Assembly (NCBI GenBank): GCA_019638075.1
Contig: JAHBUM010000003.1
Span: 1 to 43,927, forward strand
Direction of reading: 5' to 3'
Source of the DNA: Flavobacteriales bacterium
Lineage (GTDB): Bacteria; Bacteroidota; Bacteroidia; Flavobacteriales_F; PHOS-HE28
Length of the DNA stretch: 43,927 bases
Both the position numbers and the translations under genes were made by a program. This document shows, one piece after another, positions 3,386 to 41,720 of the stretch. Each line of letters opens with the position of its first letter. Within the stretch, counting starts at the first letter, position 1. The notes below the pieces were generated by a model. The model ran no database searches and was not told the DNA's origin. It saw nothing but the letters and a program-made list of their open reading frames with translations.

Positions 3386-4617
3386 GCCAGCAGCCACCCA
3401 TCGATTTCTGGTCGAAGGACCTGGTGGAAGGCCGGGACCTGAGCGAGCTCACCACGCTCAACCTCGGCCCCACCCACCCCGCCACGCACGGCATCTTCCA
3501 GAACGTGCTCACGCTGGATGGTGAGATCATCCTGGACGCCAAGCAGACCATCGGCTACATCCACCGCGCTTTCGAGAAGATCGCCGAGCGCCGTCCGTTC
3601 TACCAGATCACCACATTGACGGACCGGATGAACTACTGCAGTGCCCCCATCAACAACATGGGCTGGCACATGACGGTGGAGAAGCTGCTCAACATCGAGT
3701 TGCCCAAGCGCGTGCAGTACATGCGGGTGATCGTGATGGAACTGGCGCGCATCGCCGACCACATCATCTGCAACACCATCATCGGTCAGGACGTCGGTGC
3801 CACCACGCCCTTCCTCTACGTGTACCAGTGGCGCGAGAAGATCTACGAGGTGTACGAGGAGATCTGCGGCGCGCGCCTCACCACCAACATGGGCCGCATC
3901 GGCGGCTGGGAGCGCAACTGGAGCGATGCGGCCTGGGCGAAGACCAAGGCCATCGTGAAGGACCTGCCCGCCGCGCTGAAGGAGTTCGACAACATGCTGC
4001 TGCGCAACCGCATCTTCATGGACCGCACCATCGGCTGCGGGCCCATCAGCGCGGAGCGGGCATTGGCCTACGGCTTCACCGGCCCCAACCTGCGCGCCGC
4101 TGGCGTGGACTACGACGTGCGGGTGGCCGATCCGTACAGTGGTTATGATGAGTTCGACTTCATCATCCCCGTCGGCACCAACGGCGATACCTACGATCGC
4201 TTCACGGTTCGTCAGGAAGAGATGCGGCAGAGCCTCTCCATCATCCGCCAGGCCTTGGAGAAGCTGGAGAAGCTGGGCGACAAGACCACCTTCCGCGCCG
4301 ATGCCCCCGAGTGGGTGTTGCCGCCCAAGGAGGGTGTGTACAACAACATGGAGGAGCTGATCTGGCACTTCAAGATCGTGATGGGCGAGACCGACGTACC
4401 GGTGGGCGAAGTGTACCACTGCGTGGAAGGCGGCAACGGCGAACTGGGCTTCTACCTCGTGAGCGATGGTGGCCGCGCACCCTTCCGCCTGCACCTGCGC
4501 CGCCCCTGCTACATCTACTACCAAGCCTTCCCCGAGATGATCAAGGGCAGCATGTTGAGCGACGCGATCATCACCATGAGCAGCATGAACGTGATCGCAG
4601 GCGAACTGGACGCATGA
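3382..4617 (+). CDS. nuoD: NADH-quinone oxidoreductase subunit D
   Basis: LNLGPTHPATHG, GYIHRAFEK, DRMNY and C-terminal GELDA; ATGA overlap. Confidence 0.97.
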   Translation: MSQQPPIDFWSKDLVEGRDLSELTTLNLGPTHPATHGIFQNVLTLDGEIILDAKQTIGYIHRAFEKIAERRPFYQITTLTDRMNYCSAPINNMGWHMTVEKLLNIELPKRVQYMRVIVMELARIADHIICNTIIGQDVGATTPFLYVYQWREKIYEVYEEICGARLTTNMGRIGGWERNWSDAAWAKTKAIVKDLPAALKEFDNMLLRNRIFMDRTIGCGPISAERALAYGFTGPNLRAAGVDYDVRVADPYSGYDEFDFIIPVGTNGDTYDRFTVRQEEMRQSLSIIRQALEKLEKLGDKTTFRADAPEWVLPPKEGVYNNMEELIWHFKIVMGETDVPVGEVYHCVEGGNGELGFYLVSDGGRAPFRLHLRRPCYIYYQAFPEMIKGSMLSDAIITMSSMNVIAGELDA

Positions 4618-5171
4618 GCGCGCGCACGAGACCCATCACCACCACGGAAGGCACCAAACCGTTCGCCTTCAGCGAGACCGCACTGGCCGAGTGCCGCGAA
4701 CTGATCGCGCGTTACCCCGAAGGCCGCAGCAAGAGCGCGCTGATCCCGATCCTGCACATCGCACAGGCCGAGAACGACGGCTGGCTCAGCGTGAACGCGA
4801 TGGACGCCGTGGCGCACCTGATGGGCCTGCGCCACATCGAGGTGTACGAAGTGGCCAGCTTCTACAGCATGTTCAACCTGCACCCGGTGGGCACCTACGT
4901 GCTCGACGTGTGCCGCACCACACCCTGCATGCTGCGCGGCAGCGACGAGCTGATCCATCACTTGGAGAAGAAGCTCGGCATACACGCCGGTGAGACCACC
5001 AAGGACGGCATGTTCACCCTGAAGGCCGTGGAATGCCTCGGAAGCTGCGGCAGCGGACCGATGCTGCAATGCGGCGCCGGTTACCACGAAGATCTCACCA
5101 TTGAGAAGGTGGATGCCTTGATCGAGGAGTTGCGCGCGAGGAACCAACGGACGAATTATACAGACCGATGA
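4614..5171 (+). CDS. nuoE: NADH-quinone oxidoreductase subunit E
   Basis: VASFYSMF, VCRTTPCMLRG and ECLGSC 2Fe-2S motifs; ATGA overlap. Confidence 0.96.
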   Translation: MSARTRPITTTEGTKPFAFSETALAECRELIARYPEGRSKSALIPILHIAQAENDGWLSVNAMDAVAHLMGLRHIEVYEVASFYSMFNLHPVGTYVLDVCRTTPCMLRGSDELIHHLEKKLGIHAGETTKDGMFTLKAVECLGSCGSGPMLQCGAGYHEDLTIEKVDALIEELRARNQRTNYTDR

Positions 5172-5177
5172 AAATGC

Positions 5178-5257
5178 AGTGGCGAGTAATGAGTGGCGTG
5201 TGGCGAGTCTGCTTCGGGCAGCTGCCACACGCCACTCATTACTCGCCACTCGCCACT
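5178..5257. repeat. Heptamer-unit palindromic element between nuoE and nuoF
   Basis: Perfect 27-bp inverted repeat AGTGGCGAGTAATGAGTGGCGTGTGGC (5178-5204) / (5224-5250) made of 7-bp units, plus one extra CGCCACT unit. Confidence 0.9.
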
Positions 5258-5266
5258 CTTTGAGCC

Positions 5267-6622
5267 ATGGCCCGCAAACTCCTCTTCGAGCACATCGACA
5301 AACCCGGCATCCGTGGGCTGGAAGGCTACCGTGCGAACGGTGGTTACCGCAGCGTGGAGAAGGCGCTCAGGACCATGAGCCCCGATGCTGTTCTTGAGGA
5401 AGTGAAGAAGAGCGGCCTGCGCGGTCGCGGTGGCGCTGGCTTCCCCACAGGCATGAAATGGAGCTTCCTCGCGAAGCCCGAAGGTGTGCCCCGCTACTTA
5501 GTGGTGAACGCCGACGAAAGCGAACCCGGAACCTTCAAGGACCGCTACCTGATGGAGCGGATCCCGCACATCCTCGTGGAAGGTATGATCACATCGAGCT
5601 TCGCGCTCGGTGCGAAGACCAGCTACGTCTATGTGCGCGGCGAGTACTTCTACGTGGCGCGTATCCTGGAACAAGCCATCGCCGAAGCACGCGCTGCGGG
5701 CTGGTTGGGAAAGAACATCCTCGGCAGCGGTTTCGACCACGACATCCATGTGCAAGTGGGTGCTGGCGCCTACATCTGCGGCGAAGAGACCGCCCTGCTC
5801 GAAAGCCTTGAGGGCAAGCGTGGCAACCCGCGCATCAAGCCGCCCTTCCCTGCGGTGAAGGGTCTCTACGACTGCCCCACGGTGGTGAACAACGTGGAGA
5901 CGATCGCGGCCGTGGTGCCCATCGTGAACGACGGCGGCGAGGAATACGCCAAGATCGGCATCGGCAAGAGCACCGGAACGAAGCTCATCAGCGCTGGCGG
6001 CAACATCAAGCGTCCCGGCGTGTACGAGATCGACCTCGGCATCACCTGCGACGAGTTCATCAACAGCGACGAATACTGCGGCGGTGTGGATGGTCGCGCC
6101 TTTAAAGCTGTCGTGCCCGGTGGAAGCAGTGTGCCCATCGTGCCCTACGAGCTGTTCCTGAAGACGCCCACGGGCGAGAACCGCCTGATGACCTACGAGA
6201 GCCTCAGCGAAGGCGGCTTCGCACAGGGCACCATGATGGGTTCCGGTGGCTTCTACGCCTACAACGATGCGCAGTGCATCGTGCGCAGCACCTGGAACCA
6301 CGCACGCTTCTACCACCACGAGAGTTGCGGCCAGTGCAGCCCCTGCCGCGAAGGCACCGGCTGGCTGGACAAGGTGCTGGAGCGTCTGGAGCACGGCGAA
6401 GGCCGGATGGAGGACATCGACCTGCTCTGGGACATCCAGCGGAAGATCGAAGGCAACACCATCTGCCCGCTGGGCGATGCCGCCGCCTGGCCCGTGGCTT
6501 CGGCCATCCGCCACTTCCGCGACGAGTTCGAATACCACGTCACGCACCGTGAGAAAGTGAAGGACCCGAAGCATTTCGCGCGGGAACCTTTCCGGAAGAG
6601 TGCCAAATTCGCGACCGCTTAA
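5267..6622 (+). CDS. nuoF: NADH-quinone oxidoreductase subunit F
   Basis: GLRGRGGAGFPTG, NADESEPG, GAGAYICGEETAL and ESCGQCSPCREG. Confidence 0.98.
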   Translation: MARKLLFEHIDKPGIRGLEGYRANGGYRSVEKALRTMSPDAVLEEVKKSGLRGRGGAGFPTGMKWSFLAKPEGVPRYLVVNADESEPGTFKDRYLMERIPHILVEGMITSSFALGAKTSYVYVRGEYFYVARILEQAIAEARAAGWLGKNILGSGFDHDIHVQVGAGAYICGEETALLESLEGKRGNPRIKPPFPAVKGLYDCPTVVNNVETIAAVVPIVNDGGEEYAKIGIGKSTGTKLISAGGNIKRPGVYEIDLGITCDEFINSDEYCGGVDGRAFKAVVPGGSSVPIVPYELFLKTPTGENRLMTYESLSEGGFAQGTMMGSGGFYAYNDAQCIVRSTWNHARFYHHESCGQCSPCREGTGWLDKVLERLEHGEGRMEDIDLLWDIQRKIEGNTICPLGDAAAWPVASAIRHFRDEFEYHVTHREKVKDPKHFAREPFRKSAKFATA

Positions 6623-14827: not shown

Positions 14828-14928
14828 GCACCGATCACCGACCCGATCCCAGCTCACGGGTTGCACGAGCTTCACCTCTGACCGATCACCGGTGGTATTC
14901 ACCCGTGGTATTGACTACTTTGGTCTGC

Positions 14929-15165
14929 ATGAATTAGCGCTCGCACATCGTTTCGGACAAGGACATCCTGCTGGGCAAACCGGTCATCAAGGGTACGCGC
15001 ATCTCCGTGGAGTTGGTGCTCGAACTGCTTGCTGATGGCTGGACCGAAGCACAGGTACTACAGAGCTATCCGAACATCACGGCCGAGGACCTGAAGGCCA
15101 TATTCGCCTATCTGCGCGACGGCATGCACCAGTCCATGTACCTGCCGCTGCGCAGAACCGCCTGA
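14929..15165 (+). pseudogene. DUF433-family (VapB45-like) antitoxin interrupted by TAG at codon 3
   Basis: Reads MN*RSHIVSDKDILLGKPVIKGTRISVELVLELLADGWTEAQVLQSYPNITAEDLKAIFAY...; GKPVIKGTRISV is the DUF433 signature. A TACTTTG promoter-like element lies 6 nt upstream. Confidence 0.85.
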
Positions 15166-18236: not shown

Positions 18237-19898
18237 CTACTGCAACTCGCAGGCCGCAGCCGACACGTCCTTCAGCTCCTTGCTCAACAGCATGTCGCTG
18301 GATTGCTTGGTGCGCTCGGTGCCGGTGTTCAGGTCCTTCACTTTTTGGAACCAGCACTTGGCGGCGGGCATGTCCTTGGTGCCGTAGAAATTGTTGAAGG
18401 CGAGGTAGAACATGGCTTCCTCGGCATCCTTGGAGGCTTTGCCTGTGATCTCTTCGGGCTTCATCTTGCGCAGCGCCTCCTCGAAGAAGGGCTTGGCCTG
18501 CCACGTGGTCTTGTCGGGGTCCAGCCCCACGTTGGCGCGGGCGCGGCCGAGGTAGCCTTGGTAGATGTTGGGCTGCTTCTCGATGTACTTGGTCCACGCC
18601 ATGTCGGCCACTTCATAGCGGCCTGCCTTCTGCGCGGCACCGCCGAGGTAGTACCAGTCGTTCACCACCACCTTGCTGGAGTTGGTCTTGGCTTGGTAGG
18701 CATCCACCGCGCGGCCGAACATCTTCGCTTTCTGGAAATAGCTGCCCGCTTCCATGTACAGTTCGGGATCGGCGTTGGGCATGGCGGCGGCGGCCATGAT
18801 CTTCTCACCGGCCAGCGAATCGTTGCCCATCAGGGCCACGGCACGGCCGTAGTACTGCAGGTCGCTCGGCACCACCTTCTCCTGCGGCTGCTTGGCGAAG
18901 TAGGCATCCAGCGTGGCCATGGCGTTCACCGAATCCTTCAGTTCCACTTGGTCGTAGCCTTTGATGCGCAGCAGCGTGTTGTTGTCCACACCGGCCTGCT
19001 CCAATTTGGCGATCAGGTCCAGCGACTGCTTGTAGTCCTGCACGAGGTAGAGGAACTGCGCGTAACGCACCATGGCGCTCTGGCTGCCGGAGTTCAGCTT
19101 CAGGTACTCGTCGTAATCGGCCTTGGCCTTCTGGAAATCGCGCTTGCCGAAGTGCGATTCGGCGCGGCCACGGAAGGCGGGTGCGAAGCCCGGCTCGATG
19201 CCGATGGCCTTGTCGTATTCGGCGATGGCCGCATCGTAGTTGCGGGCGCGGTGGTACACGAGGCCACGGCGTGCGACCGGTTTCGCGCTGGTGGTGCGCA
19301 GGTCCGACGCCTTCTTGTACAGCGCCACGGGCTGCGAGGCATCGGTGGGGTTCTGACCCCACAGGATGTCGCCCTTCAGGATGTACGCTTCGGGATCGGT
19401 GGCGTCCAAGGCGATGGCGGCATCCACGGCTGCCATGGCCTTGGCCCAATCGGGGGCGTTCCCGCTCGCGTAGCCTTCGGCCACTTCGCGCTGGGTCTGC
19501 GCCTGCAACTTCTTGGGGAATTTGTTCGCCTTGTCCATGGCGATGCCGATGGCCTCGGTGAACCTGGCAGCGGCTTGGTCGCGCTGGCCCTTCACCCACA
19601 GCACCTTGCCCTGCCCCACGTGGTTCAGCGGCTGACGGGGGTTCAGATCCACGCCCTTGTTGTAGCAGTAGGCGGCGGAATCCTCGCGGTCGTTCTCGAA
19701 ATAGTTCTCACCGAGGTAGAACCACGCCTCGCCATCGTTGGGGCTGGCCGCGAGCACGCTGCGCAAGGTGGTGGCCGCCTTCTCGAAGCGCTCGCTCTCG
19801 GTAAGGGCGATGGCCTCGGCAATGGTCTGTGCGCCGGCGCTCAGCGAGCCCGCGAGGGCGGTGAGCATCAGGGCGTTGCGGAAGGAATTCTGTTTCAT
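18237..19898 (-). CDS. Secreted tetratricopeptide-repeat protein
   Basis: Signal peptide and many TPR-like repeats (AWFYLGE, YDAAIAEYDKAIGIEP); last gene of the typical Bacteroidota exbB-exbD-exbD-tonB-pstS-TPR operon. Confidence 0.9.
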   Translation of the reverse strand: MKQNSFRNALMLTALAGSLSAGAQTIAEAIALTESERFEKAATTLRSVLAASPNDGEAWFYLGENYFENDREDSAAYCYNKGVDLNPRQPLNHVGQGKVLWVKGQRDQAAARFTEAIGIAMDKANKFPKKLQAQTQREVAEGYASGNAPDWAKAMAAVDAAIALDATDPEAYILKGDILWGQNPTDASQPVALYKKASDLRTTSAKPVARRGLVYHRARNYDAAIAEYDKAIGIEPGFAPAFRGRAESHFGKRDFQKAKADYDEYLKLNSGSQSAMVRYAQFLYLVQDYKQSLDLIAKLEQAGVDNNTLLRIKGYDQVELKDSVNAMATLDAYFAKQPQEKVVPSDLQYYGRAVALMGNDSLAGEKIMAAAAMPNADPELYMEAGSYFQKAKMFGRAVDAYQAKTNSSKVVVNDWYYLGGAAQKAGRYEVADMAWTKYIEKQPNIYQGYLGRARANVGLDPDKTTWQAKPFFEEALRKMKPEEITGKASKDAEEAMFYLAFNNFYGTKDMPAAKCWFQKVKDLNTGTERTKQSSDMLLSKELKDVSAAACELQ

Positions 19899-19902
19899 GT
19901 TC

Positions 19903-20904
19903 TTAGTTCGTCAGCAGCTCCACATCCCGGCCGGGGACCCTCTGCGGCGCAAGGCCTGTTTTGAGGATGATGCGCTGGCCCTTGTGACCGGCCACAAAGG
20001 AAACAAAACCGGTGCCAAGACCTGTTTTCCCCTCCTTCAGCACCGCGTACAGCGTGCGGCGCAAGGGGTATTGCCCATCGGCGAGCGTGGATTGGTTGGG
20101 CGGGATGGCCGGGTGGATGCCGTCGGAGATCCGGCACAGCGTGATGCGGCTGCGCAGCGCGCGGCATGCCGGGTCGTCCAGATCGCTGATGTGGGCGAAG
20201 GCGATGAGGCCGATGGCATCGGGCGTGGCGCTCACCCGGGCGATCAGGCTGTCCAGTCCGGCGGCGGCGGTCACGTTCTTCAGCGCGTCGGCACGGCCAC
20301 CGAGCAGGGAATCCACCACGGTGCGTACCACGCCACCACGCGCGTCGTCCACGATCACACGGGCGCCACCTCCGGTAAGCGCCTTGCGCAGGTCGTCCAC
20401 GCTGAGGCTGTCGGCGCCGCCGGGCGCTCTCACCACCGCGATGGCATCGGTGAGGATGGGCACGTCATCGGGGAAGAGGTTGCGCGAGCGGAAGAAGACC
20501 GCTTCATCGGCGCCCGGCAGGGTGGCGGTGAACACCACGCGCACCTCATCGGTCCGCATGGCTTCGCGCAATTCCATTTCAGGCAGATAGCTCACCCGCA
20601 CCGTGGCTTCCGCGTAGATGCTCTCGAAGATGAAACGCTCTGCTTCGATGATGCGCTCCAGATCGCGGTCGGCCACCACGCGGATGTCGCCCTTCGTGGG
20701 CACGTCGTCGCGCTGAGGGTCGGGAGCCTTGCCCGTGCAGGCGGCGAGTGTGAAGAAGAGAATGCAGAATGCAGTCGGCAGTCGGCAGTCGGCAGTGGGC
20801 AGTGGGCAGCGGGTCCGGCCGATGGGACTGCCAACTGCCCACTGCCCGCTGCCGACTGACAACTGAAAACCGACAACCGACAACTGCACTCCCCCCCTCT
20901 TCAT
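19903..20904 (-). CDS. PstS-like periplasmic substrate-binding lipoprotein with a repeat-derived N-terminal insert
   Basis: LAAC lipobox, DAIAVV, YPLRRTLY and GLGTGFVSFV..GQRIILK motifs; the ATG at 20904 overlaps the upstream stop (ATGA). Confidence 0.85.
   Translation of the reverse strand: MKRGGVQLSVVGFQLSVGSGQWAVGSPIGRTRCPLPTADCRLPTAFCILFFTLAACTGKAPDPQRDDVPTKGDIRVVADRDLERIIEAERFIFESIYAEATVRVSYLPEMELREAMRTDEVRVVFTATLPGADEAVFFRSRNLFPDDVPILTDAIAVVRAPGGADSLSVDDLRKALTGGGARVIVDDARGGVVRTVVDSLLGGRADALKNVTAAAGLDSLIARVSATPDAIGLIAFAHISDLDDPACRALRSRITLCRISDGIHPAIPPNQSTLADGQYPLRRTLYAVLKEGKTGLGTGFVSFVAGHKGQRIILKTGLAPQRVPGRDVELLTN
20760..20888. repeat. Heptamer-unit inverted repeat inside the 5' end of the pstS-like gene
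   Basis: (GAATGCA)2(GTCGGCA)3(GTGGGCA)2, a spacer, then CTGCCAA CTGCCCA CTGCCCG CTGCCGA CTGACAA CTGAAAA CCGACAA CCGACAA CTGCA. Confidence 0.9.
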
Positions 20905-21101
20905 TCCTTCTCCCCCCTTTGAGCCTTGTACCCGCGCCACCACATGAACAGCCGCACAAGCCCGTACCCGAGCAGCAGCCCACCGAAGAGCATGCGGTGC
21001 TCCGTGATCCGGTCCTTCAGCGCGTTGGTGAACAGCAGGGCCGCGCCCAATGCTGTGTAGAGCAGGGACATCGCCAGTCGCGCTATGCTTCCGAAGGGCA
21101 T
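20901..21101 (-). CDS. Small two-TM membrane protein
   Basis: 66 aa with two hydrophobic segments (FGGLLLGYGLVRL); fills the gap between tonB and the pstS-like gene and is coupled to the latter. Confidence 0.75.
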   Translation of the reverse strand: MPFGSIARLAMSLLYTALGAALLFTNALKDRITEHRMLFGGLLLGYGLVRLFMWWRGYKAQRGEKE

Positions 21102-21112
21102 GGGCTGTTGTT

Positions 21113-21143
21113 AAAGAAGAAGAGCGGCCGGTGTGCCGCTCTT
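21113..21143 (-). terminator. Terminator-like stem-loop after tonB
   Basis: AAGAGCGGC - 6 nt - GCCGCTCTT followed by CTTCTTT on the minus strand. Confidence 0.6.
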
Positions 21144-21150
21144 TTGTGGA

Positions 21151-21987
21151 TCATCTCAGGGTGAACCTGATCGGCATGTTGTACTGCACACGCACGGGCT
21201 TTCCGCGCTGCTTGCCGGGTTCCCAATCGGGCATGGACTTCACCACGCGGATGGCTTCCTCGTCGCAGCCGCCGCCGATGCCACGGAGCACCTTGGGTTC
21301 GCGCACCTTGCCCTTCTCGTCCACCACGAAGGTGACGTACACCACGCCCTTGATGCCTGCGTCGATGGCCATGGGCGGATACTTCATGGTCTTCTCCAAG
21401 AACTTGAACAGGGCCGCTTCACCGCCGGGGAACGACGGCATCTCTTCCACGATGGTGAAGATCTGCGGCTCCTCCTCCACGGGCGGAGGTGGCGGTTCAT
21501 CGCCCTTCTCACCTTCCTGCGTGGTGGTGCCCGCAGTGGTCTCCTGTAGCGTTTCCTGCGTGGGCGGCGGTTCTTCCACGGGTTCGTCCTTGGCCACGAG
21601 CTGGGTGAACTGCACGCTCTCGATCTTCACGGGCGGCGGCGGTTCCACGGGCGGGGGCGGAGGCGGTTCCTCCTTCTTCTCCTGCTCGAAGATGTCGAGG
21701 TTCACGTCCACGATCTTCTTCGCTTCCACCACTTCGCCATCGCCGCTCAACGAGGCGATGATCTTGGGCAGGCCCACGGCAAGGCCGAACACGAGCACAC
21801 TGCCCACCACGGCGATCAGCAGCCGTTTGGTGTAGTCGCGGCGCAGCACGAAGGCACCGTAGTCCTGATTACGGTCGGCGAAGACCATCTCGTTGCGCGC
21901 CGCCGTGAGCACGTTGTTCCAGCTCAGGTCCATGGCCATGGCAATGGACAGTACGAGCAGGACTCCTATGAAGATCAGGTATTCCAT
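21151..21987 (-). CDS. tonB: Energy transducer TonB
   Basis: RNQDYGAFVLR N-terminal motif, TM segment, Pro-rich linker, and MPSFPGG / YPPMA / WEPGKQRGKPVRV TonB_C domain. Confidence 0.94.
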   Translation of the reverse strand: MEYLIFIGVLLVLSIAMAMDLSWNNVLTAARNEMVFADRNQDYGAFVLRRDYTKRLLIAVVGSVLVFGLAVGLPKIIASLSGDGEVVEAKKIVDVNLDIFEQEKKEEPPPPPPVEPPPPVKIESVQFTQLVAKDEPVEEPPPTQETLQETTAGTTTQEGEKGDEPPPPPVEEEPQIFTIVEEMPSFPGGEAALFKFLEKTMKYPPMAIDAGIKGVVYVTFVVDEKGKVREPKVLRGIGGGCDEEAIRVVKSMPDWEPGKQRGKPVRVQYNMPIRFTLR

Positions 21988-21990
21988 GGC

Positions 21991-22626
21991 TCAGAGCTTG
22001 GCTTTTTCGGTGTCCAGCAACGCCTGTTCCTCGGGCTTCAGTTCATCCAGCACACCGTACGAGCCGATGCCGCAGATGTCCATCTCGTCCACCATGTCGA
22101 TCATGTTGCGGTACTTGGCATCCGCATCGGTCTTGATGATGGCCTTCAGGTTGTCCTTGTTGCCCTTGATCGTCTTGCGCTTCTCGTTGTACTCCTCTTC
22201 GGTGATCTTCTTCTCGTTGAACTGGCGCACGAGATCGTTCAACTGGGCCACCGTCTGCTTGTTGTTCTCCACCAGCAGCTTCTGCACCTTGCTGAAATCG
22301 GTGTGCTCCAGCGTGGTGGGCGGGCCTTTTTCGGTGGCCTCCGTGCGGAACTCGCCCATGTAGTAGTAGATCTGGTCGTTCTTGGTGAGCAGCAGGGTGA
22401 TGGCGTTGTTCAGCGCCGTTTCGTTCTGCGGATTGTCCTTGTCCGGTACCGGATAGGTCATCTGCAGCGAGCTCGGCTTGTACATGGTGGTGGTGAGGAT
22501 GAAGAAGGTGAGCAGCAGGAAGGCAAGGTCCACCATCGGCGTCATGTCGATGTGGGTGCTGCCCCTCTTCGCGCGCTTCTTCCCTTTTCCTCCGCCGTCA
22601 CCACCGCCTTCGGGTACTTGTGCCAT
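21991..22626 (-). CDS. exbD: Biopolymer transport protein ExbD (second copy)
   Basis: IDMTPMVDLAFLLLTFFILTT motif. Confidence 0.92.
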   Translation of the reverse strand: MAQVPEGGGDGGGKGKKRAKRGSTHIDMTPMVDLAFLLLTFFILTTTMYKPSSLQMTYPVPDKDNPQNETALNNAITLLLTKNDQIYYYMGEFRTEATEKGPPTTLEHTDFSKVQKLLVENNKQTVAQLNDLVRQFNEKKITEEEYNEKRKTIKGNKDNLKAIIKTDADAKYRNMIDMVDEMDICGIGSYGVLDELKPEEQALLDTEKAKL

Positions 22627-22695: not shown

Positions 22696-23325
22696 TTACA
22701 TCCTCGACGATTCGAGGTCGGTGATCATCTTGAACTTGCTGATCTGGATACCCGGTGACTGGAAGGTGCGGATGACCTCGGCCACGCGGCTGTAGTTGGT
22801 GTTGCCGTCGGCCTTGAGGGCCACCACGGGATTGTGGCCGGCATCGTTCCAGAAGATGTTGCGCGTCACGCTGATCCACTCATACAACTGGTTGTTGGTG
22901 CTGTCCACGGGAATGCCCTCGTGGCTGGCCATGTACGCCTTCCGCTCCGAGCCGGTCTCCAAGGAGAGCAGCTCCCGCAGGTTCTGTATGGGCACCCCGA
23001 TGGGGCCTGCGTTCACGAACTTCACCTTCTCCTCGTCGGTGGGGGTGTAGTTCACGCGCTTGCCAAGCTCTTCCAGCACGGCGATGCGCACGCCTTTGTC
23101 GGTGAAATCCCAGAACACCTTGCCCGCCGTGTCCACCACCACGGTGAGCATGTTGGTCATGGGGATGGGCGATTGGGACATGGACGAAGGCGTATCCACC
23201 GCCACCGCTTCTTCGGGCCGGAACTGGGCGGTGAGCATGAAGAAGGTCACCAGCAGGAAGGCAAGGTCCACCATAGGGGTCATGTCCAGTGAAGGACTGC
23301 TCCTCGGCATCTTGATCTTTGACAT
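22696..23325 (-). CDS. exbD: Biopolymer transport protein ExbD (first copy)
   Basis: LDMTPMVDLAFLLVTFFMLT and LKADGNTNY motifs. Confidence 0.92.
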   Translation of the reverse strand: MSKIKMPRSSPSLDMTPMVDLAFLLVTFFMLTAQFRPEEAVAVDTPSSMSQSPIPMTNMLTVVVDTAGKVFWDFTDKGVRIAVLEELGKRVNYTPTDEEKVKFVNAGPIGVPIQNLRELLSLETGSERKAYMASHEGIPVDSTNNQLYEWISVTRNIFWNDAGHNPVVALKADGNTNYSRVAEVIRTFQSPGIQISKFKMITDLESSRM

Positions 23326-23365: not shown

Positions 23366-23405
23366 CCGCAAGTAGGGGCGCGGGATCCCGCGCCCCTACT
23401 TGCGG
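23366..23405. repeat. 40-bp perfect palindrome with a GTAG-type REP-like core
   Basis: CCGCAAGTAGGGGCGCGGGA|TCCCGCGCCCCTACTTGCGG; contains the exbB TAG stop. Confidence 0.85.
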
Positions 23406-24208
23406 TTGGCGAGGGTCTGGCTCACGCTGAACCCGGCCTCGTCGATGCCATGGGTGATGGCGTCGATGCGGTTGCCGAAGTAGTTGAAGAAGATGATGGC
23501 GAGGGTGGAGCCGGTGATACCGAGCGCGGTGTTGATGAGGGCCTCGGAGATACCGGTGGAGAGCTGGGTGGCATCGGGCGTGCCGGAAGTGGCCAGCGCG
23601 CTGAACGCCTTGATCATACCAAGCACGGTACCGATCAGACCCACGAGGGTGCTGATGCTGGCGCAGGTGGAGAGGATCACCATGTTCTTGCTGAGCATGG
23701 GCATCTCAAGCGCAGTGGCCTCCTCCAGCTCCTGCTTCACGCTCTGCAGGCGGGTCTCCTTGTCGTGCGTGGCATCGTACAGCACGGTCTTGTAGCGCTC
23801 CAAGCCGCTGCGCATCACGCTGGCCACGGAACCCTGTTGCTCGTCGCACACGGCCACGGCCTTGTCCACATCATCGTTGGCAAGGTGCTGGCGCACGTTC
23901 ACGATGAACTCGTCGATACGACCCTTGCCCTTGGCACGTGCCAGCGTAACGAAACGCTCCACCGCGAAGATGAGCACCACGAGGTTGATGCTGATGAGGA
24001 TGGGCACGATGAACCCGCCCTTGTAGATGGTACCGTACAGTTTGCCGGGGTTCACATCGATCGGGTGGCCATGCACCGGATCATTGTTCTGGAAGTTCTC
24101 CGGCGCGCCGAGGACATAGCTGTAGAAGGACCAGCTGATGATCAGCACCAAGGGGAACACGATGGCTACGAACAGGGAGTTCGCTTTCCCGCTCTTCACG
24201 TTGCTCAT
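23396..24208 (-). CDS. exbB: MotA/TolQ/ExbB proton channel protein
   Basis: STLVGLIGTVLGMIKAF and GISEALINTALG motifs. Confidence 0.93.
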   Translation of the reverse strand: MSNVKSGKANSLFVAIVFPLVLIISWSFYSYVLGAPENFQNNDPVHGHPIDVNPGKLYGTIYKGGFIVPILISINLVVLIFAVERFVTLARAKGKGRIDEFIVNVRQHLANDDVDKAVAVCDEQQGSVASVMRSGLERYKTVLYDATHDKETRLQSVKQELEEATALEMPMLSKNMVILSTCASISTLVGLIGTVLGMIKAFSALATSGTPDATQLSTGISEALINTALGITGSTLAIIFFNYFGNRIDAITHGIDEAGFSVSQTLANRK

Positions 24209-24342: not shown

Positions 24343-24512
24343 GCGGAATGGAGAAGCGACATTGATGCTGGCAAGGCTAACGCAACCACTTCTCCCGCTC
24401 GTGTGCGGTGCGATCTGGCACAAGGAACGGGAAGCCTTGGCGAAGGAGCGGTACGTGTTCAGCCTTCCAAGCATGTGGCAAGATCGTTTCCGCTTATTTA
24501 TTTTCCATGGAA

Positions 24513-24520
24513 TATATTTG
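24513..24520 (+). promoter_or_regulatory. -7 promoter element (TATATTTG) for pirin
   Basis: Matches TAnnTTTG, 7 nt before the ATG at 24528. Confidence 0.6.
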
Positions 24521-24527
24521 CATCCTG

Positions 24528-25385
24528 ATGGACCGCAAGACCTTCCTCCGCACCACTGTTCTCGGTGGCACCGCCCTCACCATCGGTGCCGCCGAAGCCA
24601 GCACCGCCCCGGAAAAGGAGGTGGTCGGGTTCAACCATCTACCAACTGAGAACGCACACATCATGAGCAACATGGTACTGCACAAGGCGGCCACCCGTGG
24701 GCACGCCGACCACGGCTGGCTGAACGCCCGCCACACTTTCAGCTTCGCGAACTACTACGACCCGGAGCGCATGCACTTCGGCGTGCTGCGGGTGCTGAAC
24801 GACGATGCCATCGCCGCCGGACGCGGCTTCGGCACGCACCCGCACGACAACATGGAGATCGTGACCATCCCGCTCTCGGGCACCGTGGCGCACAAGGACA
24901 GCATGGGCAACAGCGGCACCATCGGCGCGGGCGAAGTGCAGGTGATGAGCGCCGGCACGGGCATCACGCACAGTGAGTTCAACCACGAGCAGGACAAGGA
25001 ACTGCGGCTGTTGCAGATCTGGATGTTCCCCCGCAAACGCAACGTGACGCCCCGCTACGCGCAGATCAAATTGAACACCGAAGCTGGCGACAACGCCTTC
25101 GAGCAGGTGCTTTCCCCCGACCCGGACGATGCCGGTGTATGGGTGCATCAGGATGCGTGGTTCAACCTCGGCCGTTTCGATGCGGGCAGGAAGGTGGACT
25201 ACCGCGTGAAGCGCAAGGGCAACGGCGTGTATGCCTTCATCATCGAAGGCGAAGCCACCATCAACGGCCAGCAGCTCGCACAGCGCGACGGCCTTGGCGT
25301 GTGGGATGTGGACGAGCTGAACATCGCCACCGGCGCGAACGGCGCGCGCATCCTGCTGATGGATGTGCCGATGGAGCTGGGGTGA
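24528..25385 (+). CDS. Pirin-family protein (YhhW-like) with an N-terminal Tat-like extension
   Basis: RGHADHGWL, HTFSFANYYDP, GFGTHPHDNMEI, HKDSMGN and QVMSAGTGITHSE; alternative start at 24663. Confidence 0.92.
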   Translation: MDRKTFLRTTVLGGTALTIGAAEASTAPEKEVVGFNHLPTENAHIMSNMVLHKAATRGHADHGWLNARHTFSFANYYDPERMHFGVLRVLNDDAIAAGRGFGTHPHDNMEIVTIPLSGTVAHKDSMGNSGTIGAGEVQVMSAGTGITHSEFNHEQDKELRLLQIWMFPRKRNVTPRYAQIKLNTEAGDNAFEQVLSPDPDDAGVWVHQDAWFNLGRFDAGRKVDYRVKRKGNGVYAFIIEGEATINGQQLAQRDGLGVWDVDELNIATGANGARILLMDVPMELG

Positions 25386-25642
25386 GGGGGTAGTGGTCAG
25401 TTGTCGGATGTCTGTTGTCAGTGGCGATACTTGGGATCTGTTCGCATACGGGTCGGGGGAAGAAGTGAAGGAGGTTGGGCAGGGGCAGGCGCAGGGGCAA
25501 TGCTCCTGCCAACTGCTCCTGCCCCTTCACATCATCGGCATCAGCCTTCGCCCCTATTGCGAACAGCCTCTTGGAATGTGAGCGTTGTCCGCCACGCCTT
25601 CCACCAAGGAGCCTGACATCCGACAACTGGCAACTGCCCTCC
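25386..25642. repeat. Nested palindromic element (7-bp-unit outer arms, 6-bp-unit inner hairpin)
   Basis: Outer CAGTTGTCGGATGTC / GACATCCGACAACTG, middle CTGTTCGCA / TGCGAACAG, inner GTGAAGG / CCTTCAC enclosing GGGGCA / TGCTCC hexamer units. Confidence 0.8.
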
Positions 25643-25736: not shown

Positions 25737-27140
25737 ATGCTCTTCAACAGCGTTCCCTTCCTTCTTCTCGTCCTACCGACGCTGCTGCTGTACTATGTGC
25801 CGTTCATGCAGCGGTTCCAGTTGCATGTCATCATCGTAAGCAGCTTCATCTTCTACGCCTACAACGACCCGGCGCTGCTGCTGTTGCTGCTGCTGTCCAT
25901 CAGCATCAACATCGTATCCAGCTACGCCATCGCGTATGGCCCGCAGCAGCACCGGAAAGCATACGCCACCTTCGGCGTGGTGGCCAACCTCGCCATCCTG
26001 CTCTTCTTCAAGTACGGCCCGCTCTTCGGCCGCTCGTTCTTCCCAGAAACGAGCAGCATCGGGCAGTTCCTCGTGAGCATTCCGCTGCCGGTGGGCATCA
26101 GCTTCTTCACCTTCCAAGGCATCAGCTTGGTGGTGGAGGCCTACAAGGGGAAAGACCTGCCGGAGTATGAGTCCATCGTGGTGAAGGGCCTTGTGCGGCA
26201 CGGCATCCGCATCGCGGCGTTCAAGGCCTTCTTCCCGCAGCTGGTGGCCGGCCCCGTGGTGAAGGCCCACCAGTTCCTGCCGCAGGTGCGCACCAAGTAT
26301 TGGAAGGACATCGACTGGAACAGCGCGTTCGCATCGCTCGTGGTGGGCTACTTCCTGAAGATGGTGATCGCGGACAACCTGAAGGACCAGACGTTCTGGG
26401 TCACCTTCCCCTACTTCCGCGACATGCACAGCATCACGCTGGTGACGCTGCTGTTCGGCTACTCGTTCCAGATCTTCTCCGATTTCGCTGGCTACTCGCT
26501 CATCGCCATCGGCCTCGCCAAGCTGTTCGGCTACGACTTCCCCATCAACTTCAACTTCCCGTACATCAGCACCACCTTCGCCGAGTTCTGGCGGCGCTGG
26601 CACATCTCATTGAGCACCTTCCTGCGCGATTTCCTGTACATCCCGCTGGGCGGCAACCGCAAGGGCGGCTTCCACACCTACAAGAACCTCATGCTCACCA
26701 TGGTGCTGGGCGGCCTGTGGCACGGCGCGGCGTGGAGCTACGCGGTGTGGGGCTTCTTCCATGGCCTCGTGCTGGCGGTGGAGCGCCTCCTGAAGGACTT
26801 CGGCCTCACCGTGAAGCTGCCGAAAGCCATCCACATGCTCTTCATCTTCTGCATGGTCACGCTGGCGTGGCTGCTCTTCAAGCTGCCCGACTTCAACCAT
26901 GTGATCGAGTACATGCGCTGCATCTTCACCAATACGCACATCACCAACGTGCAGCCCATCATCCTCTTCTTCACGGCGCTGTTCTCCATCCCCCCCATCA
27001 TCTACCACCTGCTGTACCTGTGGACACGCAAGCCGCAGCCCGCGCTGGCCCGCATCAAACCGGTGCTGTACGGCATCATGCTCTTCCTCATCCTCGTGAA
27101 CTCCGGCGGTGGCGCGTCGTTCATCTACTTCCAGTTCTGA
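25737..27140 (+). CDS. MBOAT-family O-acyltransferase (AlgI/DltB/PatA-like)
   Basis: MLFNS, LPVGISFFTFQ, FFPQLVAGP, DFAGYS, FWRRWHISLS, YIPLGGNR, GLWHGA and C-terminal FIYFQF. Confidence 0.95.
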   Translation: MLFNSVPFLLLVLPTLLLYYVPFMQRFQLHVIIVSSFIFYAYNDPALLLLLLLSISINIVSSYAIAYGPQQHRKAYATFGVVANLAILLFFKYGPLFGRSFFPETSSIGQFLVSIPLPVGISFFTFQGISLVVEAYKGKDLPEYESIVVKGLVRHGIRIAAFKAFFPQLVAGPVVKAHQFLPQVRTKYWKDIDWNSAFASLVVGYFLKMVIADNLKDQTFWVTFPYFRDMHSITLVTLLFGYSFQIFSDFAGYSLIAIGLAKLFGYDFPINFNFPYISTTFAEFWRRWHISLSTFLRDFLYIPLGGNRKGGFHTYKNLMLTMVLGGLWHGAAWSYAVWGFFHGLVLAVERLLKDFGLTVKLPKAIHMLFIFCMVTLAWLLFKLPDFNHVIEYMRCIFTNTHITNVQPIILFFTALFSIPPIIYHLLYLWTRKPQPALARIKPVLYGIMLFLILVNSGGGASFIYFQF

Positions 27141-41629: not shown

Positions 41630-41720
41630 GGGGGCGAAGGGGGAAGGAAGAAAGGAGGAAGGAAAAAGAGGAAAGAAGGACGGCGAAGGAGGAAGGAAGA
41701 AGAGTAAAGAAAGAAGAGCG
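41630..41720. repeat. Polypurine / polypyrimidine tract of degenerate 7-bp units
   Basis: GAAGGAA GAAAGGA GGAAGGA ... GAAGGAG GAAGGAA GAAGAGT AAAGAAA GAAGAGC between pepA and pdxA. Confidence 0.75.

Follow-up and report, generated by a model that had tools for sequence, protein, structure and literature searches.

Contig JAHBUM010000003.1 of a Flavobacteriales bacterium (positions 1 to 43,927, the whole stretch analysed here, called the window) carries on its minus strand a gene cluster in the order exbB, exbD, exbD, tonB, a 66-codon open reading frame (ORF), a gene for a PstS-like (PBP_like_2) lipoprotein and a tetratricopeptide repeat (TPR) gene. We studied the 5' end of the lipoprotein gene, where a long palindrome composed of 7-nt units lies in frame between the start codon and the lipobox. 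The lipoprotein passes the cutoff of Pfam family PF12849 (E 1.6e-12, 48.2 bits, cutoff 27) but does not reach the PstS subfamily model TIGR02136 (23.1 bits against a cutoff of 206.6), and the label is therefore limited to 'PstS-like'. The features of the junction are as follows.

20901-21101, minus strand: conserved ORF of 66 amino acids with two hydrophobic stretches, the putative upstream partner for translational coupling
20901-20904, minus strand: ATGA overlap of the small-ORF stop and the lipoprotein start (ATG 20904-20902 overlapping TGA)
19903-20904, minus strand: PstS-like (PBP_like_2) lipoprotein gene, 333 codons counted from the coupled ATG
20891-20897, minus strand: G7 homopolymer in codons 3-5, within the inserted segment, read directly
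20760-20891, minus strand: heptamer-unit palindrome, 132 nt by pairing, 123 nt extra relative to orthologues
20828-20891, minus strand: 5' arm in the mRNA, GAGT followed by nine heptamer units, coding VQLSVVGFQLSVGSGQWAVGS
20810-20827, minus strand: loop of 18 nt between the best-paired arms, from an inverted-repeat search and folds
20760-20809, minus strand: 3' arm, CTGCCCA twice, CTGCCGA three times and CTGCATT twice, coding CPLPTADCRLPTAFCI
20779-20781, minus strand: in-frame CTG (Leu42) in the 3' arm of the stem, paired; it would give a 15-residue leader, MPTAFCILFFTLAAC
20740-20772, minus strand: h-region AFCILFFTLAA, mean Kyte-Doolittle hydropathy about 2.5, of native length
20737-20748, minus strand: lipobox L-A-A-C, residues 53-56, with the cysteine as residue 56
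20701-20703, minus strand: GTG (Val68) 3' of the lipobox, start of database protein P0001, from homologue search and alignment

Anatomy of the leader and its hairpin

Translation from ATG 20904 gives MKRGGVQLSVVGFQLSVGSGQWAVGSPIGRTRCPLPTADCRLPTAFCILFFTLAAC, in which the lipobox cysteine is residue 56 (codon 20739-20737). The leader of 55 residues is made up of MKR, 41 repeat-coded residues and then the h-region and lipobox. A first-pass annotation had placed the last ATG before the lipobox at 20904, overlapping the upstream stop as ATGA, and its coordinates, sequence and peptide were all confirmed, its interpretation in part. Its palindrome of about 129 bp, read in frame up to Cys56, is also present, although the size has to be corrected to 132 nt by pairing and to 123 nt as extra sequence. 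Between TTG 20862 (codon 15) and the cysteine, no in-frame ATG, GTG or TTG was found; the next is GTG 20703, 12 codons past the cysteine, and a start there would delete the lipidation site. This GTG is the one chosen by the automatic database call (P0001, 266 rather than 333 amino acids), which skipped both the leader and the lipobox, a point of practical weight for annotation.

Lipoboxes follow the pattern [LVI][ASTVI][GAS]-C, to which L-A-A-C conforms. The h-region is well defined (residues 45-55, with hydropathy of 2.5-2.7 in 9- and 11-residue windows) and is preceded by a positively charged n-region (K2, R3, R30, R32 and R41 against D39), with Arg41 four residues ahead of the h-region. In orthologues the cysteine column is nearly invariant and the following GKAPDPQRDDVPTKGD is conserved too. 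The proposal that the last two CTGCATT units supply part of the h-region did not clearly hold. The non-palindromic flanks measure 33-36 nt compared with 42 nt for a native leader, so that 6-9 nt of palindrome stand in for native sequence, and the alignment sets ACTGCATTCTGCATTC opposite orthologue codons 3-8. Since the h-region is of native length, the repeat chiefly lengthens the n-region and not the h-region.

Two facing arrays of 7-nt units occupy codons 5-48. The units of the 5' arm are GCAGTTG, TCGGTTG, TCGGTTT, TCAGTTG, TCAGTCG, GCAGCGG, GCAGTGG, GCAGTTG and GCAGTCC, and the longest perfect run in either arm is three units (CTGCCGA). Tandem Repeats Finder reported period 7 at 20771-20809 (5.6 copies, 96% matches), 20827-20887 (8.7 copies, 79% matches) and 20759-20774 (2.3 copies, 100% matches). 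In its tandem 7-nt units beyond chance expectation, the segment 20760-20891 resembles heptanucleotide simple sequence repeats. Its arms are inverted over 38 nt with 87% complementarity at a distance of 18 nt. The RNA fold of 20730-20920 (minus strand) reached -115.3 kcal/mol, compared with -77.6 +/- 4.8 kcal/mol in 200 dinucleotide shuffles (z -7.87), none of which was as low, and a 141-nt core gave a z of -9.8.

Three further ideas about the hairpin were examined. An extension of the palindrome into the flanking native codons was rejected, as AAGAGGGGGGG and CTCTTCTTC are a purine run facing a pyrimidine run in which about half of the positions match, which is the chance level. A role as an intrinsic terminator was likewise rejected: no T-run follows the stem, and a terminator scan placed no site at the repeat. 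Rfam 15 gave no match at gathering score anywhere in the window, with only sub-threshold matches to generic hairpins (miRNA precursors) at 20735-20926.

Origin of the insertion and hairpins elsewhere

A scan of species-representative genomes yielded 74 loci, all from Flavobacteriales or Bacteroidota metagenome-assembled genomes, with a best identity of 76%; the window's own genome is absent from this set. The small ORF, for which no Pfam or NCBIfam family was matched, was found by tblastn (E <= 1e-3) in 68 of the 74 loci and always directly upstream of the lipoprotein gene. Junctions were counted in the 48 loci with both landmarks, the other 20 of the 68 being excluded on account of an unmatched lipobox pattern. 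An in-frame four-base overlap start (NTGA) is present in 28 of the 48 (ATGA in 15, GTGA in 12 and TTGA in one), each in frame with the lipobox, and all nine closest loci have ATGA with the cysteine at codon 15. Because the overlap recurs in these 28 loci, the nine closest included, ATG 20904 is, on comparative grounds, the ancestral start and putatively the translationally coupled one. A run of six G residues (20913-20918, minus strand) lies just 5' of this ATG.

Aligned with the junction DNA of ten relatives, the window shows a single clean gap of 123 nt against nine of them, with homologous and collinear flanks on both sides; the tenth, L005, has an unrelated 63-nt extension of its own. The alignment indicates that the repeat is a lineage-specific insertion of 41 codons, in frame, which moved the leader cysteine from residue 15 to residue 56. 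From the upstream stop to the cysteine, the nine closest loci measure 39 nt, the 48 together 39-114 nt and the window 162 nt, the largest value, and relatives place the cysteine, counted from the overlap start, between Cys15 and Cys40. Among 26 aligned orthologues, leaders start with M-R/K in 22 and reach the cysteine at about residue 15. The alignment of orthologue N-termini proposed in the first-pass annotation thus returned short leaders wherever the repeat is missing (Cys15 in the nine closest), not equally long ones. Most of the 298 homologues retrieved with the 333-residue query, including close ones, are about 293 residues long. P0002, the nearest known relative (83% identity), lacks the insertion, and no second allele was found in the protein database, in which the window protein's own cluster holds one sequence from one contig and the next match is 83% identical.

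The gene body is undecayed. All 69 alignment columns in which the 26 orthologues agree are unaltered in the window protein, and in a leave-one-out control most orthologues likewise keep all invariant columns.

Coupled-start leaders lengthened without heptamer repeats were seen in L005 (3590-3692, Cys36), L057 (9902-10016, Cys40) and L037 (9929-10016, Cys31). No internal ATG is present in L057 or L037, and L057 has only a GTG too near the cysteine. Leader length at this junction therefore varies within the family.

As to how the repeat arose, no target-site duplication was seen at the edges of the alignment gap. Miniature inverted-repeat transposable elements have terminal inverted repeats, a target-site duplication and multiple near-identical copies; the element here is an inverted repeat throughout, with no direct duplication visible at the gap edges, in a comparison that draws on 44 kb of genome. 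A stem-based search of the window and the 74 loci (1,235,849 nt; stems of at least 21 nt) found 14 hairpins, of which five are best described by a period of 7: the two long ones of the 44-kb window, those in L050 and L062, and a weak one in L056. The second hairpin of the window is the following.

5178-5250, nuoE-nuoF spacer: second heptamer hairpin, AGTGGCG/AGTAATG units, perfect 27-bp stem, -67 kcal/mol, z about -11

The spacer that holds it measures 95 nt, between nuoE (4311-5171) and nuoF (5267-6622), and the hairpin ends 16 nt before the nuoF ATG. The heptamer hairpins of L050 and L062 are intergenic as well. Heptamer-unit hairpins in this lineage normally occupy intergenic spacers, and since like hairpins lie in spacers elsewhere, the class is not specific to the lipoprotein gene. 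No second copy of the leader repeat was found within the window, the other hairpin being built of AGTGGCG-type units. That unit sequences differ from hairpin to hairpin argues, as far as 44 kb of genome allow a judgement, for local growth and against copies of one mobile master element.

Several other repeats were recorded along the way. A direct heptamer array of the GTCAGTT type (25392-25422, 4.4 copies) lies just past the pirin stop (24408-25385), and a separate hairpin of GGGCAG units (25465-25530) precedes an MBOAT gene (25737-27140); the fold is no more than weakly better than shuffles (z about -2). At 41636-41717 there is a purine-rich, GAAGGAG-like tract of low complexity with period 7 at 64-65% matches and no hairpin. 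A different hairpin repeat, starting TTCACCACAGAGGC, recurs in several Flavobacteriales metagenome-assembled genomes (L050 14821-14985, L015 16365-16456 and L073 3760-3846). In L050, arms of the TTCACCACAGAGGC type appear to flank the heptamer hairpin at 14863-14943, which suggests nesting of hairpins. L059 carries at 18919-19013 a hairpin of 10-nt units (CACGGAT type), a period-10 counterpart of the heptamer hairpins.

Peptides encoded by the repeat, which the first-pass annotation had suggested looking for, do occur in frame in other proteins. When the 56-residue leader was compared with longer proteins, 8 of 45 candidates gave weak matches, all of them through SGQWAVGS... and LPTADCRLPT, and four of the eight are whole or fragmentary DnaE-type polymerases. 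P0123 has a segment, residues 69-106, that stays unaligned to E. coli Pol III alpha, while the blocks on either side align with residues 6-72 and 81-844 of that enzyme. P0126 and P0127 have flanks that are about 95% identical and carry a hairpin-coded segment at the same site, of differing length and in frame in both. Heptamer hairpins can thus persist in frame inside long conserved genes, as judged from predicted proteins. These polymerase genes point to a broader and apparently undescribed heptamer-hairpin habit, which may be of wider interest than the lipoprotein gene. P0123, P0126 and P0127 also carry further similar-looking inserts of low complexity, GIRDSGFGIRDS...IPNPESRIP and PLSLPSPLSSLPSPLS.

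Proposed translation and fate of the repeat-coded leader

The account that we favour, with about even confidence, is that the heptamer repeat is selfish or neutral DNA that would be read from the coupled ATG and whose residues would be lost when the signal peptide is cut off. The hairpin would have formed in place, or inserted, two or three codons past the start of the PstS-like gene, adding 123 nt and keeping the frame. Ribosomes ending on the 66-residue ORF would restart at the overlapping ATG, bypassing the pairing of the hairpin with the start region, and would then melt the stem and read through it; coupling would matter precisely because the fold pairs the start region. The product would carry the 55-residue leader, in which the 41 repeat-coded residues that follow MKR place Arg41 near the native h-region and lipobox. 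Signal peptidase II would cut before Cys56 and leave a mature lipoprotein that matches its orthologues, and the insertion would be tolerated at this site because the repeat-coded part is discarded with the signal peptide. In favour of this account are the ancestral overlap start, the single clean gap between collinear flanks, the want of a canonical start from repeat to lipobox, the intact gene body, the retained lipobox and h-region, the in-frame polymerase segments, the spacer hairpins elsewhere and the Sec leaders of comparable length in autotransporters. On this reading the repeat is not an adaptation; it is probably tolerated DNA, and its use as a switch is unproven. If the long leader works, a lipoprotein leader tolerates an n-region extension of 41 residues, and the signal peptide would be a safe harbour for selfish repeat DNA whose added residues are cut off.

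A number of observations weigh against this account. The PROSITE rule for lipoproteins places the cysteine within roughly residues 15-35, and Cys56 lies outside this usual range. Targeting or topology could suffer from the weaker hydrophobic block that comes first in the leader (residues 5-17, mean hydropathy about 1.5). Beginning 13 nt past the AUG, the stem (-93 to -115 kcal/mol) takes the start region into its pairing and could block translation or draw a double-strand RNase. Nor does the open frame, which is indeed open through the repeat as first described, provide evidence of selection, since each of the six frames, three sense and three antisense, is free of stops there. The lack of stops is therefore a matter of unit composition, only the length as a multiple of 3 is informative, and retention of the frame has a chance of one in three. 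The sense and antisense strands fold almost equally well (-87.3 and -83.2 kcal/mol, with four and three G-U pairs, respectively), giving no sign of selection on mRNA structure, and a strand-specific selection on the RNA was dropped as an explanation. Finally, the insertion is missing from P0002 and would thus be young, so that an intact gene body is no bar to recent inactivation.

It is conceivable, though on balance unlikely, that the gene is crippled or strongly damped. The leader would then go unseen by Sec, Lgt and Lsp, or the hairpin would block translation or be cut as double-stranded RNA, leaving the lipoprotein, and possibly also the TPR gene coupled to it, silent or mislocalised, with an intact body because the event is recent. 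The great stability of a stem that includes the start region agrees with this, as do the semi-hydrophobic stretch ahead of the true h-region, the longest leader among the window and the 48 loci (Cys56), the lack of the insertion in the closest relative at 83% identity and the rejection of the long leader by the automatic gene caller (P0001). Against a crippled gene stand the kept reading frame, the retained coupled ATGA start and the 69 unchanged invariant columns. Moreover, comparable insertions have lasted in frame within polymerase genes, and the coupled-start leaders of L057 and L037 (Cys40 and Cys31) indicate that extended leaders are tolerated in the family.

Initiation at a near-cognate codon in or after the repeat, which would turn the repeat into a structured, noncoding 5' leader, appears improbable. 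No route to a leader of normal length exists other than the best candidate, the in-frame CTG 20781, which would give one of the native 15 residues (MPTAFCILFFTLAAC). This leader would be devoid of Lys and Arg, against M-R/K in 22 of 26 aligned orthologues, and the codon is within the paired 3' arm. Besides, initiation at CTG, ATT or ATC is needed in no related locus, and the conserved overlap start is still there and in frame.

We are also doubtful, to a high degree, of a more far-reaching scheme in which a distinct, cross-phylum class of self-generating repeats, found at gene junctions and in coding regions with the frame kept, has in this operon been turned into a gate. Translation of the lipoprotein and TPR genes would occur only when ribosomes coming from the small ORF melt the stem, and slippage of a unit or of the G7 tract would give a heritable off state.

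Very little credence is given to a contingency locus, in which the frame would shift, and the lipoprotein be toggled, whenever the repeat lengthened or shortened by one 7-nt unit or the G7 tract (20891-20897) by one G. In its favour, 7 is not divisible by 3, the coding sequence contains the repeat, the G7 tract occupies codons 3-5, and the polymerase insertions at one shared site are of unequal length. The arms are unequal (nine against seven units), which indicates that unit number changed in the past. On the other hand, the units have diverged and the longest perfect run is three, short of a long perfect tract; the protein belongs to a single-sequence cluster, with one allele; and like hairpins are intergenic, with no frame at stake. 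Phase variation would, furthermore, answer no known need in a TonB-cluster component that faces the periplasm, in an environmental Flavobacteriales genome.

Palindromes can disturb assembly and this hairpin is on one contig only, but an assembly artefact is hardly credible given flanks collinear with nine orthologous loci around a single clean gap, another hairpin of the same build and different units in the window, and similar hairpins in independent assemblies (L050 and L062) and database proteins.

Relation to known systems and the surrounding cluster

The case is a form of in-frame palindromic repeat insertion, for which the closest known concept is the Rickettsia palindromic element and the closest sequence type the heptanucleotide simple repeat. 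Rickettsia palindromic elements (RPE) are described in PMC10969869, citing Ogata et al. 2000, as palindromic repeats of about 100-150 bp inside coding sequences that keep the frame and add a peptide. The likeness lies in the in-frame palindromic insertion in a coding sequence, here of 123 nt or 41 codons. RPE are, however, sequence families with a conserved peptide, to which the diverged 7-nt units seen here do not belong. The phylum also differs, the present relatives being Flavobacteriales metagenome-assembled genomes, and the insertion here is in a leader that would be cleaved off, leaving the mature protein free of it.

Heptanucleotide simple repeats are, according to PMC4679880, citing Mrazek et al. 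2007, abundant in some bacteria, mostly intergenic and often beside start codons. Tandem 7-nt units near start codons are what the present repeat shares with the TAACTGA-type or cyanobacterial heptamer repeats. Several units here (TCAGTTG) are one base off the complement of TAACTGA, and the encoded QLSV... resembles LSVISYQ, which PMC4679880 gives as a reading of the TAACTGA-type repeat. Those heptamer repeats are direct arrays, with a single inverted set reported among 170 in the Beggiatoaceae genome (PMC4679880). Here, by contrast, two facing arrays form a long hairpin, and the units are G+C-rich and heterogeneous.

Leaders of about 50-60 residues are known from autotransporters and two-partner secretion, where, according to PMC2805444, an N-terminal extension precedes an ordinary n-h-c signal. 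Residues 1-20 here similarly form a charged and then weakly hydrophobic block before the true h-region. Those extensions are conserved sequence domains in type V secretion proteins that signal peptidase I cuts, whereas the present one is repeat DNA in a single genome, placed before a lipobox. Contingency loci are alike in that slippage near the 5' end of the coding sequence, by a unit whose length is no multiple of 3, would shift the frame; they differ in that the perfect tracts here are short (three units), the build is a hairpin and one allele was seen. In a literature search whose coverage left out most subscription journals, we found no paper dealing with hairpins of heptamer units placed in a signal peptide or in frame in a coding sequence.

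The remaining genes of the cluster were assigned from ORFs and profile matches.

23396-24208, minus strand: exbB
22696-23325, minus strand: exbD (first)
21991-22626, minus strand: exbD (second)
21151-21987, minus strand: tonB
18237-19898, minus strand: TPR protein gene, start 4 nt past the lipoprotein stop

Between the tonB stop and the small ORF, a terminator-like G+C-rich stem followed by CTTCTTT (21120-21143, minus strand) may set tonB partly apart from the three downstream genes.

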